DNA of 64,000 nt from assembly GCA_028711115.1 (NCBI GenBank), contig JAQTSV010000001.1, positions 390,032-454,031 on the forward strand. The letters run 5' to 3'. Source of the DNA: Candidatus Omnitrophota bacterium (GTDB lineage Bacteria > Omnitrophota > Gorgyraeia > Velamenicoccales > JABMQK01). This document shows positions 30,916-40,756 of this stretch, piece after piece. The stretch's first letter is position 1. Each line of letters starts with the position of its first letter. Made by a program: the position numbers and the translations under genes. The notes under the pieces are model-generated. The model saw only the letters and a list, made by a program, of their open reading frames with translations, did no database searches and was not told the DNA's origin.

Positions 30916-33900
30916 ATGGCGCAAAAATTAGATTTTGACCACAAGAAAGTCAAGTATTCATTAAAAGACGATGGCAGATTCATCATCGAGAATTATAACT
31001 TTTCAAAGCCATTCTCCAGTTTTTTCCCCGGCATAGCCGGTTTATACGGAATACCCATGTGGGTATTTTATGTAAACAGAGGCCAGGGAATCGCCAGTTT
31101 CGGTATCAATTCCAAGGACCATCCGCTCTTGGAATTCTTTCCTGCAGATAAGACCTATGAAATGGTTTCCCGTCGGGGATTCCGGACATTTATAAAATTA
31201 AAAAAGAATAACAACATAACTTATTACGAACCTTTCCAGAACTCGTTAAGCAATTTGGTATTTCAGAGGAAGAATCGTATAGTTATAAATTTCTCTGAAC
31301 TGGGATTAGAAGAAGAAAACTTATCTTTAGGATTAAATGTCAGAGTAAACTATTTCACTATCCCTTCAGATAATTTTGCAGGGCTGGTGAGAATATTAAG
31401 TATAAAAAATACCTCAAGAAAGCCGCAGACGATTGAATTAATCGATGGGCTCCCCATAATTATTCCTTACGGTCTTAGCAATATGTTCTTAAAGAAACTC
31501 AGCCGCACAATTGAAGCCTGGATGGGCGTGGAGAATTTGGAAAACAATGCAGCGTTTTATCGCCTGAAAGTCGATCCCACCGACAGGCCAGAAATTATAC
31601 ACATAAAAAAAGGCAACTTCTATCTAAGTTTTTATGAGCAGGATGAAAAAGCTACTTTGCTAAAACCAATCGTAGACCCGGAGTGCGTATTCGGCAGAGT
31701 TACGGATTTGTCTTTCCCGTATTTATTCTTGAAAGAGAATAATTTCACCTATCCCAGACAGCAGATTGTCCAAAGTAGAACCCCGTCAGCGCTCTCTTTT
31801 ATAAAGACTCAGCTTAAGAAAGACGAAGAATTTGTATTGTATAGTGTTTGTGGCAATATGGATTATCTCGAGAAGTTAAACAGAAATATCAAACGCATCG
31901 CCAAAACCGACTATATAAAATCAAAACAAAAAGAAAATAACCAGATTGTCGCCTCAATCATGCAGAATGCCGCAACATTGTCTTCTTCCGATACTTTTAA
32001 TTTGTATGCCAAAGGTACGTTTTTAGATAATGTGATGCGCGGCGGCCTGCCCATAACTTTAGATAAGGAAAAAGGCGAAGTTGTCTACGTTTATTCGCGT
32101 AAGCACGGCGATTTAGAGAGGGATTACAATAAATTTGTCACGCAGCCGACTTATTTTTCGCAGGGTAACGGTAATTACAGGGATATAAATCAAAACCGCA
32201 GAAACGATATCTTTTTTAATCCCGAGTTAAAAGAAGCCAACATCGTCAGTTTTCTTAATTTTATTCAGTTGGACGGCTTTAATCCTTTAGTCATAAAAGG
32301 CATAAGCTATCATATAGAAGACAAAGATAAAATTTCCAAAATCTTAAGAGATTATTTAGACGATAACGACAAGAACCTTTTGAGTTCATTTTTATCGAAG
32401 CCGTTTTATATCGGCGAGCTTTTTATGTGGCTGGAGGAACACAACATAAACATCAAGGGCGACAAGAACGAATTCATAAAGAAGGTATTGTCTTTCAGCA
32501 TAAAACAGGAAGACGCAGAATACAAAGAAGGATTCTGGACCGACCATTGGACATATAATTTGGATTTAATAGAGAGCTATCTTGCTGTTTATCCCGAAAA
32601 ATTAAAATATATACTATTGGATAAGAAGGAATTTACTTTTTATGACGATTGCTGGACGGTAAATCCTCGCATTAAAAAATATGTTTTGTATGGTATAAAT
32701 CCGCGGCAGCTTAATGCAGTTGCGATTTCTAAAGAAAAACAGGTATTGATAGAAGGAAGAAAAGTCGAGCCGCATAAAGTGCGCATTGATTTTGGAAAAG
32801 GCGAGATATATAAGACTAATCTATTAGAGAAATTCATCTGCATAATCTTGAATAAACTGGCTTCGCTCGATCCGTTCGGCGTGGGCATAGAGATGGAAGC
32901 AAACAAACCCGACTGGTACGATGCCCTTAACGGCCTGCCTGCGCTTCTGGGTTCATCTATTTCGGAAACGATGGAACTTAAGAGGTTGATTCTATTTATA
33001 GAAAAGTCACTGAAGGAGTTAGGCCTAAAAGAAGATTCGAAAATCGAAATGGCAGAAGAGTTTTTTGAATTCTACAATGGTTTATCACAATTGTTAGAGG
33101 CCAAAGACGAAGATTCACAGGAAGGCAATTTTGTATTTTGGGATAAAAGTTATAGTTTAAAGGAAGAATACAGAGAAAAAACAATCTTAGGCTTAAGTGG
33201 AAAAGAAAAACAGATTAGCTTGTCAGATTTTATGCAATTCCTTAATCGCGCCCTGGCAAAGGTTGAAAGAGCAATATGCAAATCCTATAATCCCAAAGAT
33301 AAAACTTACAATACCTATTTTATAAATGAAATCGAGAAATTTGAGCGTATCGGCGAAGATAAAGAAGTCGTTTTTATAAAACCGCTCAAATTCAGGCAAA
33401 AGGCGCTGCCTCTATTTTTGGAAGGTTTTGTTCACGCCTTAAAGATAACAGATAAAATCACCGACAAGAAATCCATATATGAAGCAGTGAGAAGAAGTAA
33501 ACTTTACGATAATGCCTTGGGCATGTATAAAGTTAACGCTCCGCTGGAAGGCCAGCCGGAGGAAATCGGCAGAGCCAGAGTATTTACGCCGGGCTGGTTA
33601 GAAAACGAATCTGTTTGGCTGCATATGGAATATAAGTATTTATTGGAACTTTTAGAATCCGGTTTACATGATGAATTTTATAAAGATTTCTTTAGAATTC
33701 TGATTCCTTTCCAGGATCCCCAAAGATACGGACGCAGTATATTGGAAAATTCTTCTTTCTTGGTAAGCAGTGCTTTCCCCGACGCTAAATTGCACGGCAA
33801 TGGTTTTGTAGCGAGATTAAGCGGTTCCACATCAGAATTTTTACACATCTGGTTATTGATGAATGTGGGGGTTGCGCCGTTCTTTTTAGACGGCAAAGGA

Positions 33901-34227
33901 AAGTTATGTCTTAGATTTCAGCCAATTCTGCATAAAGACCTGTTTACGAAAAAAGAAATTAAATTCAATTACGCTACCAACGGCGATAAAGAAGTTTTGA
34001 TTGAGAAAAATTGTTATGCCTTTAATTTCTTGGGTAATACTTTGGTTGTTTACCATAATCCCAAAAGGTTAAATACTTATGGTAACAATGCTGCCAAGAT
34101 AAAGAAGATTATTTTAGAGGACAGGCAAAACAAAAAGCATGAAATCAATTCCGATTTGATATCCCCGGACTACTCCTATAATATCCGTTTGGCTAAATTC
34201 TTCCGCATAGACATATATCTTTCCTGA
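30916..34227 (+). CDS. Large (1103-aa) uncharacterised protein, possibly a distant GH94-like (alpha/alpha)6-barrel glycoside phosphorylase/hydrolase
   Basis: A single uninterrupted ORF, so coding status is secure. The functional hint is only the motif KPDWYDALNG (32911-32931), which resembles the xDWNDxxN motif I recall from GH94 phosphorylases, plus protein size and domain length. Confidence 0.45.
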   Translation: MAQKLDFDHKKVKYSLKDDGRFIIENYNFSKPFSSFFPGIAGLYGIPMWVFYVNRGQGIASFGINSKDHPLLEFFPADKTYEMVSRRGFRTFIKLKKNNNITYYEPFQNSLSNLVFQRKNRIVINFSELGLEEENLSLGLNVRVNYFTIPSDNFAGLVRILSIKNTSRKPQTIELIDGLPIIIPYGLSNMFLKKLSRTIEAWMGVENLENNAAFYRLKVDPTDRPEIIHIKKGNFYLSFYEQDEKATLLKPIVDPECVFGRVTDLSFPYLFLKENNFTYPRQQIVQSRTPSALSFIKTQLKKDEEFVLYSVCGNMDYLEKLNRNIKRIAKTDYIKSKQKENNQIVASIMQNAATLSSSDTFNLYAKGTFLDNVMRGGLPITLDKEKGEVVYVYSRKHGDLERDYNKFVTQPTYFSQGNGNYRDINQNRRNDIFFNPELKEANIVSFLNFIQLDGFNPLVIKGISYHIEDKDKISKILRDYLDDNDKNLLSSFLSKPFYIGELFMWLEEHNINIKGDKNEFIKKVLSFSIKQEDAEYKEGFWTDHWTYNLDLIESYLAVYPEKLKYILLDKKEFTFYDDCWTVNPRIKKYVLYGINPRQLNAVAISKEKQVLIEGRKVEPHKVRIDFGKGEIYKTNLLEKFICIILNKLASLDPFGVGIEMEANKPDWYDALNGLPALLGSSISETMELKRLILFIEKSLKELGLKEDSKIEMAEEFFEFYNGLSQLLEAKDEDSQEGNFVFWDKSYSLKEEYREKTILGLSGKEKQISLSDFMQFLNRALAKVERAICKSYNPKDKTYNTYFINEIEKFERIGEDKEVVFIKPLKFRQKALPLFLEGFVHALKITDKITDKKSIYEAVRRSKLYDNALGMYKVNAPLEGQPEEIGRARVFTPGWLENESVWLHMEYKYLLELLESGLHDEFYKDFFRILIPFQDPQRYGRSILENSSFLVSSAFPDAKLHGNGFVARLSGSTSEFLHIWLLMNVGVAPFFLDGKGKLCLRFQPILHKDLFTKKEIKFNYATNGDKEVLIEKNCYAFNFLGNTLVVYHNPKRLNTYGNNAAKIKKIILEDRQNKKHEINSDLISPDYSYNIRLAKFFRIDIYLS

Positions 34228-34389: not shown

Positions 34390-35580
34390 ATGGCAATGAA
34401 GATACTTTTGGCAGAAAAAGACGAAAGCTTAATAGAAATCTTGCATATGCTGCTTAAGTCTTTTAAATACGAAGTAGCCATTTCCCGCAGCGCAGACGAT
34501 ACACTGTCAACCATAAAGGAAGTCTCACCGGATTTAATTCTCATCGATACAAATCTTTCCGACGCAGACGGCCTGGAGGTATCCAAAGCTATAAAAGAGG
34601 ATTTTCTAACCGCCTATATTCCTATAATTGTGTTGATTGACCGCAGGCAGGTAAGAAGGGATTTACTCGAGATTGAACAGGGAATAGATGACTACATTAT
34701 AAAGCCTCCGGACCCTATTGATTTGCAGATACGCATTGAAATGGCCGTGCGCCGGGCCACGCATCAGTTTTTTGCCAATGCACTCACCAGATTACCGGGT
34801 AATAGAACCATTGAGATAGTTTTAAAGAAAGTTATCCAGTCAAACGATCAGTTTTCTTTTGGTTACGTCGATGTCGATAGATTCAAATATTTTAACGATC
34901 ATTACGGTTATCTGAAAGGAGATGTTGTCATAATACAGACTTCCCAGATTATCTCGCGCATAGTTAAGGAATACGGCAACAAGACTGATTTTGTAGGACA
35001 TGTGGGCGGAGATGATTTTGTATTTATCACTACTCCCGACAAAGAAGAGGTTATAGCCAAAGAAATTATTAAAGAATTTGACAGGTTGATTCCTTATCAT
35101 TATTCCAAAGAAGACCGCCTGAGAGGTTATGTTGAAACCAAAGACCGCCAGGGGAAATTATCCAAAATACCGCTTATGGATATTTCTATTGCCCTGGTAA
35201 ACAATGTGAATGTCAAAATCAACAGCCTCGTCGAGTTAAGCGAGATAGCTTCGGAGATAAAAGGTCATTTAAAGACAATCGCGGGAAGCAAATTCCTTAA
35301 GAATCGCAGGGTGGAGAACAAAGGCAAAACCATCAGAAAAAAAGATGCCGATAAAACCAAAGGGCAGATTAAACGTACAGAAAAACCGCATCCCAAGAGG
35401 CCGCTGGGCCAGTTGTTGCTCGAGGCAAATCTTATTAATGAGGAGACGCTGGAGGAAGCCTTGGTCAGGCACTGGCGTTCAGGCCAGAATTTAGGCCAGA
35501 CTTTGGTAAGGATGGGTTTGGTGGATCAAGACGATATTTTAAATATGTTGAAATTACAGGAGGATAACGCAAAGTGTTAA
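34390..35580 (+). CDS. Response-regulator receiver + GGDEF-type domain (GGDDF) + C-terminal MshEN/T2SSE_N-like c-di-GMP-binding motif pair
   Basis: Receiver (DLILIDTNLSDADG, DYIIKP). GGDEF fold (LTRLPGNR..., YVDVDRFKYFND, GGDDF at 35005-35019). The C-terminal 53 aa (35401-35559) match the tandem 24-residue MshEN motif with a 5-residue spacer. Confidence 0.75.
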   Translation: MAMKILLAEKDESLIEILHMLLKSFKYEVAISRSADDTLSTIKEVSPDLILIDTNLSDADGLEVSKAIKEDFLTAYIPIIVLIDRRQVRRDLLEIEQGIDDYIIKPPDPIDLQIRIEMAVRRATHQFFANALTRLPGNRTIEIVLKKVIQSNDQFSFGYVDVDRFKYFNDHYGYLKGDVVIIQTSQIISRIVKEYGNKTDFVGHVGGDDFVFITTPDKEEVIAKEIIKEFDRLIPYHYSKEDRLRGYVETKDRQGKLSKIPLMDISIALVNNVNVKINSLVELSEIASEIKGHLKTIAGSKFLKNRRVENKGKTIRKKDADKTKGQIKRTEKPHPKRPLGQLLLEANLINEETLEEALVRHWRSGQNLGQTLVRMGLVDQDDILNMLKLQEDNAKC

Positions 35581-36410
35581 AGTTTATCTTATTAGGTTTG
35601 GTCCAGGGCCTTACCGAATTTCTTCCTGTGAGCAGCTCCGGGCATTTGGTTGTATTACAGAAAATTCTGGAGATAAATCAAAACGTAGTTTTCCTGGATG
35701 TGGTGTTGCACTTAGGCAGTTTATGCGCATTAATAGTGTTTTTCAGAAGGGATATTTTTGTTTTATTCTCCGGATTTATTACCGCAATATACGACATGGT
35801 GTTTTATAGACGGATTTCTCATGTTTGGCACTATAACGATAAATTTAAATTATGCATTTATATAGTAGTAACCACTGTCATCACCGGATTTATCGCTGTG
35901 ATTGGCAAGGAATTTTTTGAAAGTCAATTTGAATCTATAAATACCGTAATCTTAGGATTATTTTTTGTCGGCATAATTCTTTTTCTCACTAAAAATTTTG
36001 ATTATGGTCAGAGATATTTAAGGCATATTTGCCTTAAGGATTCCATATTGTTAGGGTTAGTTCAGGCTTTAGCTATCATTCCGGGAATTTCCCGTTCAGG
36101 CATTACTATTTCTACACTTATATTTTTAAATGTAGACAGGGAGAGTGCATTTAAACTTTCTTTTCTTGTATCGATACCAGCGATTTTAGGGGCATTTGTT
36201 TTAAAACTTAACGATATACAAGGCACAACGCTGGATTTTCCGTTATTATATTTAATCTCGGGGTTTTTATTTGCTTTTATAAGCGGATTGTTGGCGCTTT
36301 ATGTTTTACGTTCGATTCTAAAAGGTAAAATTGGTTTCTCCAGATTTTCCTATTATTGTTTTTTGCTGGCGATAACGATACTCATATTTAAAATGCACAA
36401 TATTTTTTAG
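35574..36410 (+). CDS. uppP: Undecaprenyl-diphosphate phosphatase
   Basis: GLVQGLTEFLPVSSSGHL and PGISRSG motifs, polytopic membrane protein. GTG start overlaps the upstream stop. Confidence 0.9.
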   Translation: MLKFILLGLVQGLTEFLPVSSSGHLVVLQKILEINQNVVFLDVVLHLGSLCALIVFFRRDIFVLFSGFITAIYDMVFYRRISHVWHYNDKFKLCIYIVVTTVITGFIAVIGKEFFESQFESINTVILGLFFVGIILFLTKNFDYGQRYLRHICLKDSILLGLVQALAIIPGISRSGITISTLIFLNVDRESAFKLSFLVSIPAILGAFVLKLNDIQGTTLDFPLLYLISGFLFAFISGLLALYVLRSILKGKIGFSRFSYYCFLLAITILIFKMHNIF

Positions 36411-39406: not shown

Positions 39407-40756
39407 ATGAAGAAGGATACGTTCCATCTTAATATTTCCACCTCGGATAATTTAGGCATAGGATTATTTAAATATTCCTTGTTGCCCGATGAGAAATTCA
39501 TCATTACGAATTCCATGTTAGCCAAGATGCTGGGTTATTCCTTAAAGAGCGAATTTAAGAATTTAAAATTAGATAATTTATTTTTGAATGCGCAGGACAG
39601 AGATGTTTTTTTTAAAACGTTAAAAAAGAAAAAAAGAATTAAATTCTTCGAAACTACTTTTAGAAAAAAGAACGGCGGCAGTTTGTGGGTAGCCATTACC
39701 GCTTCTCAGATCGGCTCACGTGATAAAAAATATCTCGAAGGAATAATCGAAGATATCTCTTTGCACAGACAGATGGAAGAAAAACTGGCTTTGGAAAGAG
39801 ATTTCATGCAGGGCCTTTTGGACAATATACCGGATGCCATTTATTTTAAAGACCGTCAGAACAAAATCATCAAAGTGAATAAATTTTATGTGCAGGGTTT
39901 AAATTTAAAGTATGAGGATATTATCGGCAAGACAGATTTTGATTTCTTCTCTGCCGACCAGGCAAAGAGAATGCTCGACGACGATAATTATGTTTTGAAT
40001 ACGGGTAAGCCTATCGTAGGAAAAATCGAACATAATGTGCTTCCCGATGGCTCGTGGAGCCAGGTGATTACCACCAAAATTCCTATGTATGATAGAAATG
40101 GTAAAATTATCGGCACAATGGGCATCACCAGAGATATGACTGCCTATGCTAATTTAGAGAGAGAAAGACTGGATATGTTAATCAATGCACTGACAGTTTT
40201 AAGCAGGGTGCTGGAGATGCGGGATCCCTATACCTCCAATCATAACAACAATGTAGCCAATATCGCCGAGAAGATCGCAAGGGTATTGGGCTGGGATGAG
40301 AACCGTCTTTTGGGAATCCGTCTGGCAGGCCAGCTTCACGATTTGGGAAAAATTGGTATTCCCTTGGATATTCTGAACAAACCGGGAAAATTAAGTAATT
40401 TAGAATATCGTCTTATTCAGGAACATGTCAAGAAGTGTTATGATATCATTAAGGATGTGAATTTCCCATTTTCCCTGGCAGAGACAATATACCAGCACCA
40501 TGAGCGTTTGGATGGTTCGGGTTATCCCAGAGAACTGAAGCAGGACGGCATTATATTGGAGGCGCGCATTCTTGCCATAAGCGATGTTTTGGAATCCATG
40601 ACTTCATATCGTCCTTACCGTGAAGCCTTAGGGCTGGAAAAGGCAATGCTGGAACTCCAAGAAGGTAGCGGCTCCAGATATGACTCCGAGATAGTAAAAA
40701 TCGTCTTTAATCTCGTCAAAGATAATCAAGGCAAGGTATTTTGGGGAATTAATTAG
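39407..40756 (+). CDS. PAS-domain HD-GYP c-di-GMP phosphodiesterase
   Basis: HDLGKIGIP and HHERLDGSGYP motifs, with two PAS-like segments upstream. Confidence 0.85.
   Translation: MKKDTFHLNISTSDNLGIGLFKYSLLPDEKFIITNSMLAKMLGYSLKSEFKNLKLDNLFLNAQDRDVFFKTLKKKKRIKFFETTFRKKNGGSLWVAITASQIGSRDKKYLEGIIEDISLHRQMEEKLALERDFMQGLLDNIPDAIYFKDRQNKIIKVNKFYVQGLNLKYEDIIGKTDFDFFSADQAKRMLDDDNYVLNTGKPIVGKIEHNVLPDGSWSQVITTKIPMYDRNGKIIGTMGITRDMTAYANLERERLDMLINALTVLSRVLEMRDPYTSNHNNNVANIAEKIARVLGWDENRLLGIRLAGQLHDLGKIGIPLDILNKPGKLSNLEYRLIQEHVKKCYDIIKDVNFPFSLAETIYQHHERLDGSGYPRELKQDGIILEARILAISDVLESMTSYRPYREALGLEKAMLELQEGSGSRYDSEIVKIVFNLVKDNQGKVFWGIN

Follow-up and report, generated by a model that had tools for sequence, protein, structure and literature searches.

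A receiver-GGDDF protein with a C-terminal MshEN_N module in Omnitrophota, a candidate cyclase that may sense its own product

The RxxD inhibitory site (I-site) is a known brake through which cyclases are inhibited by their product, and GGDEF proteins with fused PilZ domains were reportedly described by Amikam and Galperin in 2006. A further receptor for cyclic dimeric guanosine monophosphate (c-di-GMP) is MshEN_N, in which the Gly amides of the motif starts bind guanine O6 and N7 and the Gln of the motif ends contacts ribose-phosphate. On its own, the fragment MshEN_N(1-62) has an affinity of 0.35 µM for c-di-GMP (PMC5013675), and MshEN_N-only proteins are listed in the same 2016 paper. Here we describe an open reading frame (ORF) of 396 aa (34390..35580, + strand) in a 64,000-nucleotide stretch of a Candidatus Omnitrophota bacterium (contig JAQTSV010000001.1, positions 390,032 to 454,031; hereafter the window), whose product is composed of three modules, namely a receiver, a GGDEF-fold domain with the signature GGDDF, and a C-terminal MshEN_N. 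This is a new combination of known modules, of which we found no description in the literature: no GGDEF–MshEN fusion appears in the part of the architecture table of Wang et al. that was covered or in full-text literature searches, the supplement of Wang et al. names GGDEF just 5 times, with the retrieved passages all belonging to a census table, and searches for Omnitrophota together with c-di-GMP returned nothing relevant. From the observed domain identities, conservation and predicted fold we infer catalysis, ligand binding and their coupling, and on this basis the protein is probably catalytically active and reads, in cis, the c-di-GMP that it makes, with product feedback tuning the cyclase, a reading to which we assign a probability of about 0.5.

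An earlier note, made from the sequence alone, had placed the ORF and its motifs, and these coordinates hold (GGDDF at residues 206-210, NKTD at 197-200, AEKDE at 8-12 and the tail at 338-390). A metagenome-assembled genome of a Candidatus Omnitrophica (JAQUPK010000002.1, GCA_028716625.1) encodes the same protein, at 100% identity, under the name 'response regulator'. Short forms of the family, including this one, carry no annotation beyond 'response regulator' or 'diguanylate cyclase'; for the long forms described below the precomputed Pfam domains are REC, GGDEF and MshEN.

By a curated profile, sequence matches in the PDB and its predicted fold, the tail is a c-di-GMP-binding-type module of the MshEN_N kind. 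The NCBIfam model NF053729.1 ('c-di-GMP_motif, MshE-related'; full name 'cyclic di-GMP-binding domain-containing protein, MshE-related') matches residues 338-390 over profile positions 1-53 of 53, scoring 54.4 bits (E 7.9e-15; cutoff 38). These residues form a 53-residue tandem laid out as 24+5+24, in which motif I, PLGQLLLEANLINEETLEEALVRH (residues 338-361, 35401..35472, +), is followed by the five-residue spacer WRSGQ, delimited by alignment (residues 362-366, 35473..35487, +), and motif II, NLGQTLVRMGLVDQDDILNMLKLQ (residues 367-390, 35488..35559, +); the protein ends 6 residues later. In phmmer searches the last 73 residues align ungapped to residues 7-61 of Vibrio cholerae MshE (5HTL, E 2e-6), and the tail also aligns to all three GSPII domains of Thermus thermophilus PilF (E 9e-17). 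A profile built from 28 tails of the family and searched against the PDB retrieved 14 distinct sequences, all of them N-terminal domains of MshE, PilF or PilB (5HTL at E 4.7e-16).

Since the Foldseek matches of the full-length AlphaFold2 model are to REC and GGDEF and are uninformative on the tail, the tail was also modelled alone. This model (predicted local distance difference test, pLDDT, 84) contains helices at 10-16, 22-35, 39-45 and 51-65 in tail numbering, and the full-length model repeats the four as 339-345, 351-364, 368-374 and 380-395. Its best Foldseek match is c-di-GMP-bound MshE (5HTL_B; template modelling (TM) score 0.81, root-mean-square deviation 0.7 Å over 56 columns), followed by c-di-GMP-bound structures of PilF GSPII-B at 0.9-1.2 Å; the E-values are weak (0.02) for so short a query, and unrelated helical proteins start only at rank 19. 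The curated profile, the PDB matches and the predicted fold together uphold the tandem MshEN assignment made in the earlier note. Profile searches agreed in part, as GGDEF and NF053729 match whereas the Pfam T2SSE_N/MshEN model PF05157 has no match in the window protein at E<=10. In long relatives PF05157 covers only ~85 residues downstream of the 53-residue motif; the model starts past the motif, and its negative is therefore uninformative on it. That an earlier version of PF05157 missed the binding site was pointed out in the supplement of Wang et al. (PMC5013675). The alpha/beta half of the domain, MshEN_C (T2SSE_N1), is absent from the window protein, given the lack of a PF05157 match and an end 6 residues past motif II.

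Conservation of the tail was followed in a family obtained by searching 5.8 billion proteins, for which counts refer to the top 120 matches (49-100% identical over at least 94% of the query; organism names all Omnitrophica/Omnitrophota or an uninformative 'bacterium'). Relative to MshE the tail departs at four positions (R9 to P338, G18 to N347, Q32 to H361 and R38 to N367) and keeps both Leu-Gly pairs, L354/L358, G376, I383/L387 and Q390. The pairs L339-G340 and L368-G369 open the two motifs, preceded by P338 in motif I and N367 in motif II in place of Arg, Lys or Leu. The second copy had been said to match the consensus at nearly every fixed position, which is correct apart from the overlooked N367 for Arg at its first residue; for the first copy, to the reported N for G and H for Q (N347 and H361) must be added P338 for Arg. 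Among the 120 homologs G340, Q341, L354, L358, H361 and G369 are invariant, and P338 (118/120), W362 (117/120), G376 (113/120) and Q390 (95/120) are nearly kept; purifying selection thus acts on the ligand-contact positions of the tail, as it does on the catalytic residues of the cyclase domain. The start of motif II, position 367, is occupied by K in 43, R in 25, L in 20 and N in 11 homologs.

Several of these residues weigh against a functional receptor. H361 lies where Gln would contact ribose-phosphate, N367 lies at the guanine-stacking Arg/Lys/Leu site, where Asn, shared with the closest relatives, is a minority state (11/120), and N347 replaces the alpha1-alpha2 Gly that has been described as needed for the helix turn. 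The relaxed 24-residue pattern of Wang et al. (PMC5013675) accepts copy 2, its sole match in a six-frame translation of the 64-kb window, and motif I fails it. Furthermore, the non-binding PilF GSPII-A has His (H33) and Ser (S39) at the positions of H361 and N367, the latter small and polar like S39; Arg for Ser was needed for binding, and in the rebuilt domain a change of Arg back to Ser abolished it (PMC12002112). Together with the missing MshEN_C half and the decayed receiver pocket, which would mark a branch that is shedding functions, these features would fit a decayed, non-binding MshEN_N, comparable to PilF GSPII-A or Xanthomonas XpsE, serving as a helical dimerisation or partner module of an ordinary REC-GGDEF-type protein. 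We regard such decay as unlikely. The failure of GSPII-A is multi-factorial, involving its N-cap helix and inter-subdomain contacts, and no H33Q single variant is reported (PMC12002112). GSPII-B, with Lys and Leu for Arg, binds 83-fold tighter than MshEN (PMC11731258), so that Arg is dispensable, and Pro at the start of motif I has a precedent, since in the phmmer alignment the start 'KPLG' is common to the family and to PilF GSPII-C, which binds c-di-GMP (PMC12002112). At the end of motif I, Gln replaces His in distant family members, and the two residues therefore interchange there. The Gln residues do count in GSPII-B, where Q190E brings the dissociation constant to ~500 nM, in the range of the original MshEN, and Q190E+Q218E abolishes binding (PMC11731258). 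Position 347 is variable in the family, the helix turn at N347 is still formed in the AlphaFold2 models, and the alpha3-alpha4 Gly (G47 of MshE) is present as G376. In addition, the conserved residues are ligand contacts, namely the Gly of both LG pairs, the Leu triads and Q390; the score of the tail exceeds the cutoff of the curated model by 16 bits; and the predicted fold lies less than 1.2 Å from ligand-bound structures. Given the deviations at H361 and N367, the tail is likely, though not certain, to bind c-di-GMP, and its affinity may be lower than that of its relatives.

The tandem pattern is present in 118 of the 120 homologs, of which 81 end no more than 21 residues past motif II, like the window protein, and 37 run on for a further 87-105 residues. 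The added stretch represents the MshEN_C/T2SSE_N1 half, which matches PF05157 and aligns to residues 2-139 of PilB. Three distant relatives (P0128, P0129 and P0131) combine Gln at the end of motif I with a full MshEN domain and a canonical receiver (DD, T, K). With these canonical members as reference, the window protein is, by sequence comparison, a derived and reduced member of its family, having undergone decay of the receiver pocket, loss of MshEN_C and a change from Gln to His.

The central domain (residues 132-304, 34783..35301, +) is assigned to the GGDEF fold from Pfam, AlphaFold2 and Foldseek, and to what we term the 'GGDDF clade' from the cluster search described below. Pfam GGDEF (PF00990) matches residues 132-228 with 52.9 bits against a cutoff of 23.8, over profile positions 6-105 of 161 only, and the top Foldseek matches of the full-length model are WspR, PleD and DgcR, with DosC also matched by the fold. 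In a HMMER alignment to PleD, D161, K166, N169 and D178 correspond to D327, K332, N335 and D344, N197/D200 to R359/D362 (R359-A-I-D362 in PleD), H204 to R366, and D208/D209 to E370/E371. For PleD we take D327 to be the metal residue, K332 the Lys, N335/D344 the guanine-reading residues and R359/D362 the I-site. Invariant among the 120 homologs are K166, N169, D170, D178, D200, H204, G206-F210, R253, K291, S300, R306 and R307; D161, K166, N169, D178 and GGDDF are invariant or nearly so, with D178 found in 119/120 relatives besides the window protein. The signature itself (G206-F210, 35005..35019, +) is GGDDF in 120/120 and is preceded by the invariant H204. At the RxxD position stands NKTD (residues 197-200, 34978..34989, +), which has no Arg, with N197 in 95/120 and D200 in 120/120 of the family, so that the PleD alignment bears out both the GGDDF and the Arg-less NKTD of the earlier note. 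Past GGDDF the AlphaFold2 model shows the canonical strand-helix-strand with an extra hairpin, which belongs to a clade-specific insertion (residues 238-262, 35101..35175, +; a short helix and a beta-hairpin before the canonical 'SIA' strand) delimited by conservation and the model, with conserved residues Y238, D242-R243, D252-R253 and P261-L262-M263. The residues for metal and guanine binding are thus preserved, while clade-wide other residues stand in for the I-site Arg, for R366 and for the Glu of the fourth position.

The extent of the clade emerged from a search with residues 120-396 against 1.84 billion cluster representatives (50%-identity clusters), which gave 542 matching clusters at E<1e-30; those without MshEN match the cyclase domain only, and matches other than REC–GGDDF–MshEN proteins are ~36-52% identical (most 40-48%). 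Among the best 150 representatives, to which the following counts refer, the signature is GGDDF in 133 and AGDDF in 6, the rest being minor variants, and GH[IV] stands just upstream of the motif in 130, giving a consensus of GH[IV]GGDDF. At the base-specificity position 102 representatives have Asp, 18 have Asn and 15 have Ser. Domain partners in the clade include REC, histidine kinase (HK)-REC-REC, HAMP/4HB, HAMP, HK, EAL, HD-GYP, CBS and ROK, and the taxa among the matches listed comprise Geobacteraceae, Actinomycetota, Nitrospirota, Chloroflexia, Clostridia, Planctomycetes, Acidobacteriota, Elusimicrobia, Omnitrophota and other groups. In every clade member scanned the Pfam GGDEF model covers the first 85-110 of 161 positions, owing to the conserved insertion and a divergent C-terminal part. 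None of the clade sequences read starts the RxxD position with Arg; the four residues end in a conserved Asp. As judged from these sequences, a very large GGDEF clade had GGDDF and lacked RxxD ancestrally, and GGDDF is not a product of local decay. MshEN_N occurs in only 19 of the 150 representatives, and the proposal of the earlier note that the tail could replace a lost I-site finds no support in its original form. As an evolutionary account, replacement of a lost I-site by MshEN was rejected, RxxD being absent with or without MshEN.

The cyclase domain most likely makes c-di-GMP from guanosine triphosphate (GTP), because D178 and N169 are kept, the active site is conserved clade-wide, many clade members are devoid of any other output domain, and activity is reported for one enzyme with GGDDF. 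The last point comes from the only literature we found on GGDDF activity (PMC8835794). In it GSU1937 of Geobacter sulfurreducens, with a transmembrane/HAMP input, a Hypr Ser and GGDDF, contributes to cyclic GMP-AMP (cGAMP) levels in vivo, and a fusion of its GGDDF domain with the GacA receiver yielded cGAMP and c-di-GMP in E. coli, whereas a GADDF mutant yielded none (PMC8835794).

A number of observations nevertheless speak against catalysis, or against a regulatory role of the tail in it. GGDDF does not fit the usual active motif [G/A/S]G[D/E]E[F/Y], and D209 takes the place of PleD E371, the fourth signature Glu being the reported cross-dimer catalytic base; PA3258, a GGDDF-EAL protein, is without a cyclase phenotype (PMC8835794). 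PleD R366 is His in the window protein, Pfam covers just the first ~100 of 161 GGDEF positions, and most proteins of the clade work without MshEN, so that the enzyme as such can do without the tail. The protein could accordingly be pictured as a pure c-di-GMP receptor or adaptor, whose GGDDF domain is dead, or at most a nucleotide-binding scaffold, and whose tail reads c-di-GMP made elsewhere and passes the signal on by protein-protein contacts. The degenerate receiver pocket, which leaves no obvious activating input, would agree with this, as would the fusion of some clade members to EAL or HD-GYP, where degenerate GGDEF domains are often sensors. A non-catalytic GGDDF domain had been one suggestion of the earlier note, and we keep it as a possible but clearly less probable explanation, weakened by several lines of evidence. 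Degenerate receptor domains normally lose such residues as D161, K166, N169, D170, D178 and GGDDF, which here are invariant or nearly so; GGDDF is retained by the large majority of the best clade representatives (133/150, as above); many members consist of a sensor and GGDDF with no other output domain; and the GGDDF domain of GSU1937 made both nucleotides in vivo in a manner that depended on the intact motif (PMC8835794).

Within the clade, Desulfuromonadales membrane proteins of ~320-340 aa carry a GGDDF domain with an invariant, Hypr-like Ser at the base-specificity position. P0148, a member of this group, shares 45% identity with the cyclase domain of the window protein (E 2e-46). This group fits the description of GSU1937, which by analogy would itself belong to the clade. 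A different nucleotide product for the window protein, for example 3',3'-cGAMP, with c-di-GMP controlling that pathway through the tail as a form of cross-talk, might be considered in view of this group's fit to a cGAMP synthase and of the Ser (15/150) and Asn (18/150) states at the base-specificity position, and the altered base, the R366-to-His change and the clade insertion could in principle change the chemistry. Such a product is very improbable, as the window protein and 119/120 relatives have D178 (D344 in PleD) and N169 (N335) is invariant, together the guanine-specific pair, and the window gives no sign of a second nucleotide pathway.

The receiver (residues 5-116, 34402..34737, +) matches PF00072 with 53.9 bits against a cutoff of 30.2, and the AlphaFold2 model follows the (beta-alpha)5 order, with Foldseek matches to DivK and PhoB at TM scores of 0.85-0.94, normalised by target length. 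Key positions were assigned by reading against the CheY/PleD pattern and the PleD alignment. The protein retains the acceptor Asp D53 and Lys K105, but has E9-K10 as its acidic pair and Ile (I83) at the Thr/Ser position; among the homologs D53 is found in 120/120, E9 in 97/120 and I83 in 109/120, while position 10 is H, K, E or G and position 105 is K in 70 and N in 43. By these assignments the pocket is degenerate, having lost its second acidic residue and Thr, in agreement with the atypical pocket pointed out in the earlier note. From residue 109 to 133 (34714..34788, +) the AlphaFold2 model places a long helix that runs from REC alpha5 into the cyclase linker and bears an invariant KPPDPIDL segment. 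The receiver is probably phosphorylation-independent and mainly supplies the dimerising helix, by analogy with DgcR and PleD. No partner kinase gene adjoins the regulator gene in the window or in nine related loci; the nearest case is L005, with a REC-HisKA-HATPase gene four genes upstream, at a distance of ~2.5 kb.

Between cyclase and tail lies a Lys/Arg-rich linker (residues 305-337, 35302..35400, +), recognised by low pLDDT and variable columns. It starts with the invariant N305-R306-R307 and is otherwise variable in sequence; in the full-length AlphaFold2 model its pLDDT is below 50 at residues 309-323, with block means of 46-71 at residues 311-340 and a short predicted helix at 316-324. 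In the reading that we favour, a self-sensing cyclase, the receiver-like domain would provide a dimerising helix and no phosphorylation input, the GGDEF-fold domain would make c-di-GMP from GTP without RxxD inhibition, and the four-helix MshEN_N bundle past the flexible basic linker would bind one c-di-GMP in the manner of MshE and PilF. With no phosphoryl chemistry and no adjoining kinase, the tail would be the main regulatory input, and the protein would read the product of its own cyclase as a homeostat. Docking or undocking of the bundle would be the likelier route of control, and cross-linking of domains in the style of the I-site is unlikely. The direction of regulation is not derivable from sequence, which counts against the feedback reading, and nearly as plausible is an arrangement in which the liganded bundle forms an output surface for a local target.

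The gene for an undecaprenyl-diphosphatase, uppP/bacA (35574..36410, +; Pfam BacA, 220.7 bits), follows immediately, its GTG start overlapping the stop of the ORF by 7 nt. The same overlap is seen in two related loci (L007 and L091, 62-73% identity), and in L090, with a 50%-identical relative, BacA follows after two small ORFs; the two genes probably share an operon. Other lineages have purB-purC-purL downstream, and polyprenyl synthase with DUF2059, GT2 or PMT_2 upstream. The gene may be linked to undecaprenyl-phosphate recycling or to envelope glycan genes, a connection that we treat as a lead only. A PAS-PAS-HD-GYP gene 3.8 kb downstream (39407-40756, +) has intact HD (311), HHE (364) and GYP (372) and is, from its sequence, a likely c-di-GMP phosphodiesterase, which indicates that c-di-GMP turnover exists in this organism. 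The 64-kb window contains no other REC, GGDEF or MshEN gene, and no Rfam family at the gathering threshold, c-di-GMP riboswitch, tRNA or tmRNA; a promoter and terminator scan around the gene returned counts equal to the shuffled expectation.

Nearly all large ORFs of the window are on the + strand. Upstream of the regulator, a 1103-aa protein (30916-34227, +) has no Pfam match, matches the 'GH161 phosphorylase / cellobiose phosphorylase' structures 9qqk and 9h8v at E ~1e-224, and resembles the GH149 beta-1,3-glucan phosphorylase model only weakly, below its cutoff. In L007 and L091, too, the homologous regulator is preceded by a gene of ~1100 aa with no Pfam match, the likeness being one of length. 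Small stand-alone PilZ genes occur 2-4 kb upstream of the homologous regulator in the related Omnitrophota loci L089 (2340-2705) and L090 (777-1127 and 1322-1711); among the ten flanking ORFs scanned near the window gene, PilZ has no match.

If the self-sensing reading is true, a complete MshEN_N receptor would constitute a second, modular route of product sensing, and the protein would provide a test case for local c-di-GMP signalling. The family also represents a conserved regulator, single copy per locus examined, of uncultured Omnitrophota with very small cells, and thus an entry point into their signalling. As a by-product, the GGDDF clade stands out as a large, conserved and nearly unstudied group of GGDEF domains; if it is active, cyclase counts in many phyla would be too low, since GGDDF is usually scored as 'degenerate or inactive' in censuses. 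More speculatively, the clade may consist of active cyclases that employ Asp in place of Glu as the base, of which an Omnitrophota branch became fused to its own high-affinity product receptor as the receiver decayed, yielding a local 'write-and-read' module. In view of the recurrent overlap with uppP/bacA, this module might act on envelope glycan synthesis that depends on undecaprenyl phosphate; we offer this tentatively.

Compared with V. cholerae MshE (5HTL) and PilF GSPII-B/C, the module shares the two 24-residue motifs with their five-residue spacer, the four-helix bundle, the LG pairs, the Leu triads, G376 and the motif II Gln, with a fold predicted at 0.7-1.2 Å from the ligand-bound structures. 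It differs in its position, being C-terminal on a cyclase-type protein and not N-terminal on an ATPase of type IV pili or type II secretion systems, in the missing MshEN_C (T2SSE_N1), in a motif I that ends in His-Trp and not Gln, and in motifs that start with Pro and Asn and not Arg, Lys or Leu, and binding is here a prediction from sequence. Bdellovibrio Bd2402, a c-di-GMP-binding response regulator in the list of Wang et al. 2016 (PMC5013675, Supplementary Table 4), likewise joins REC to MshEN_N without T2SSE_N1; compared by description, it has the order REC – MshEN_N – unknown domain, with no GGDEF and with an internal MshEN_N. With PleD, WspR and DgcR, its best matches both by sequence and by Foldseek, the window protein has in common a receiver, a long helix and a GGDEF fold in which the metal, Lys and guanine residues align, but it has GGDDF for GG(D/E)EF, His for R366, NKTD for RxxD, an insertion of ~12 residues, a diverging C-terminal half, a degenerate receiver pocket and an added MshEN_N tail. 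GSU1937, for which activity is reported both in vivo and for a fusion construct (PMC8835794), resembles it in carrying GGDDF, and differs in its transmembrane/HAMP input, its Ser associated with cGAMP, the lack of REC and MshEN, and a place in the clade that is itself presumptive. Finally, E. coli NfrB (glycosyltransferase–MshEN) with its dedicated cyclase DgcJ offers a similar tight coupling of a source to a high-affinity receptor, GGDEF proteins with I-sites or fused PilZ domains follow a like logic in that the cyclase itself binds what it makes, and the NfrB model NF008411 matches the MshEN region of the long member P0132 (E 3.1e-13, well below the model cutoff). In contrast to these, the window protein would unite source and receptor in one polypeptide, with MshEN_N in the role of receptor and neither an I-site nor PilZ.

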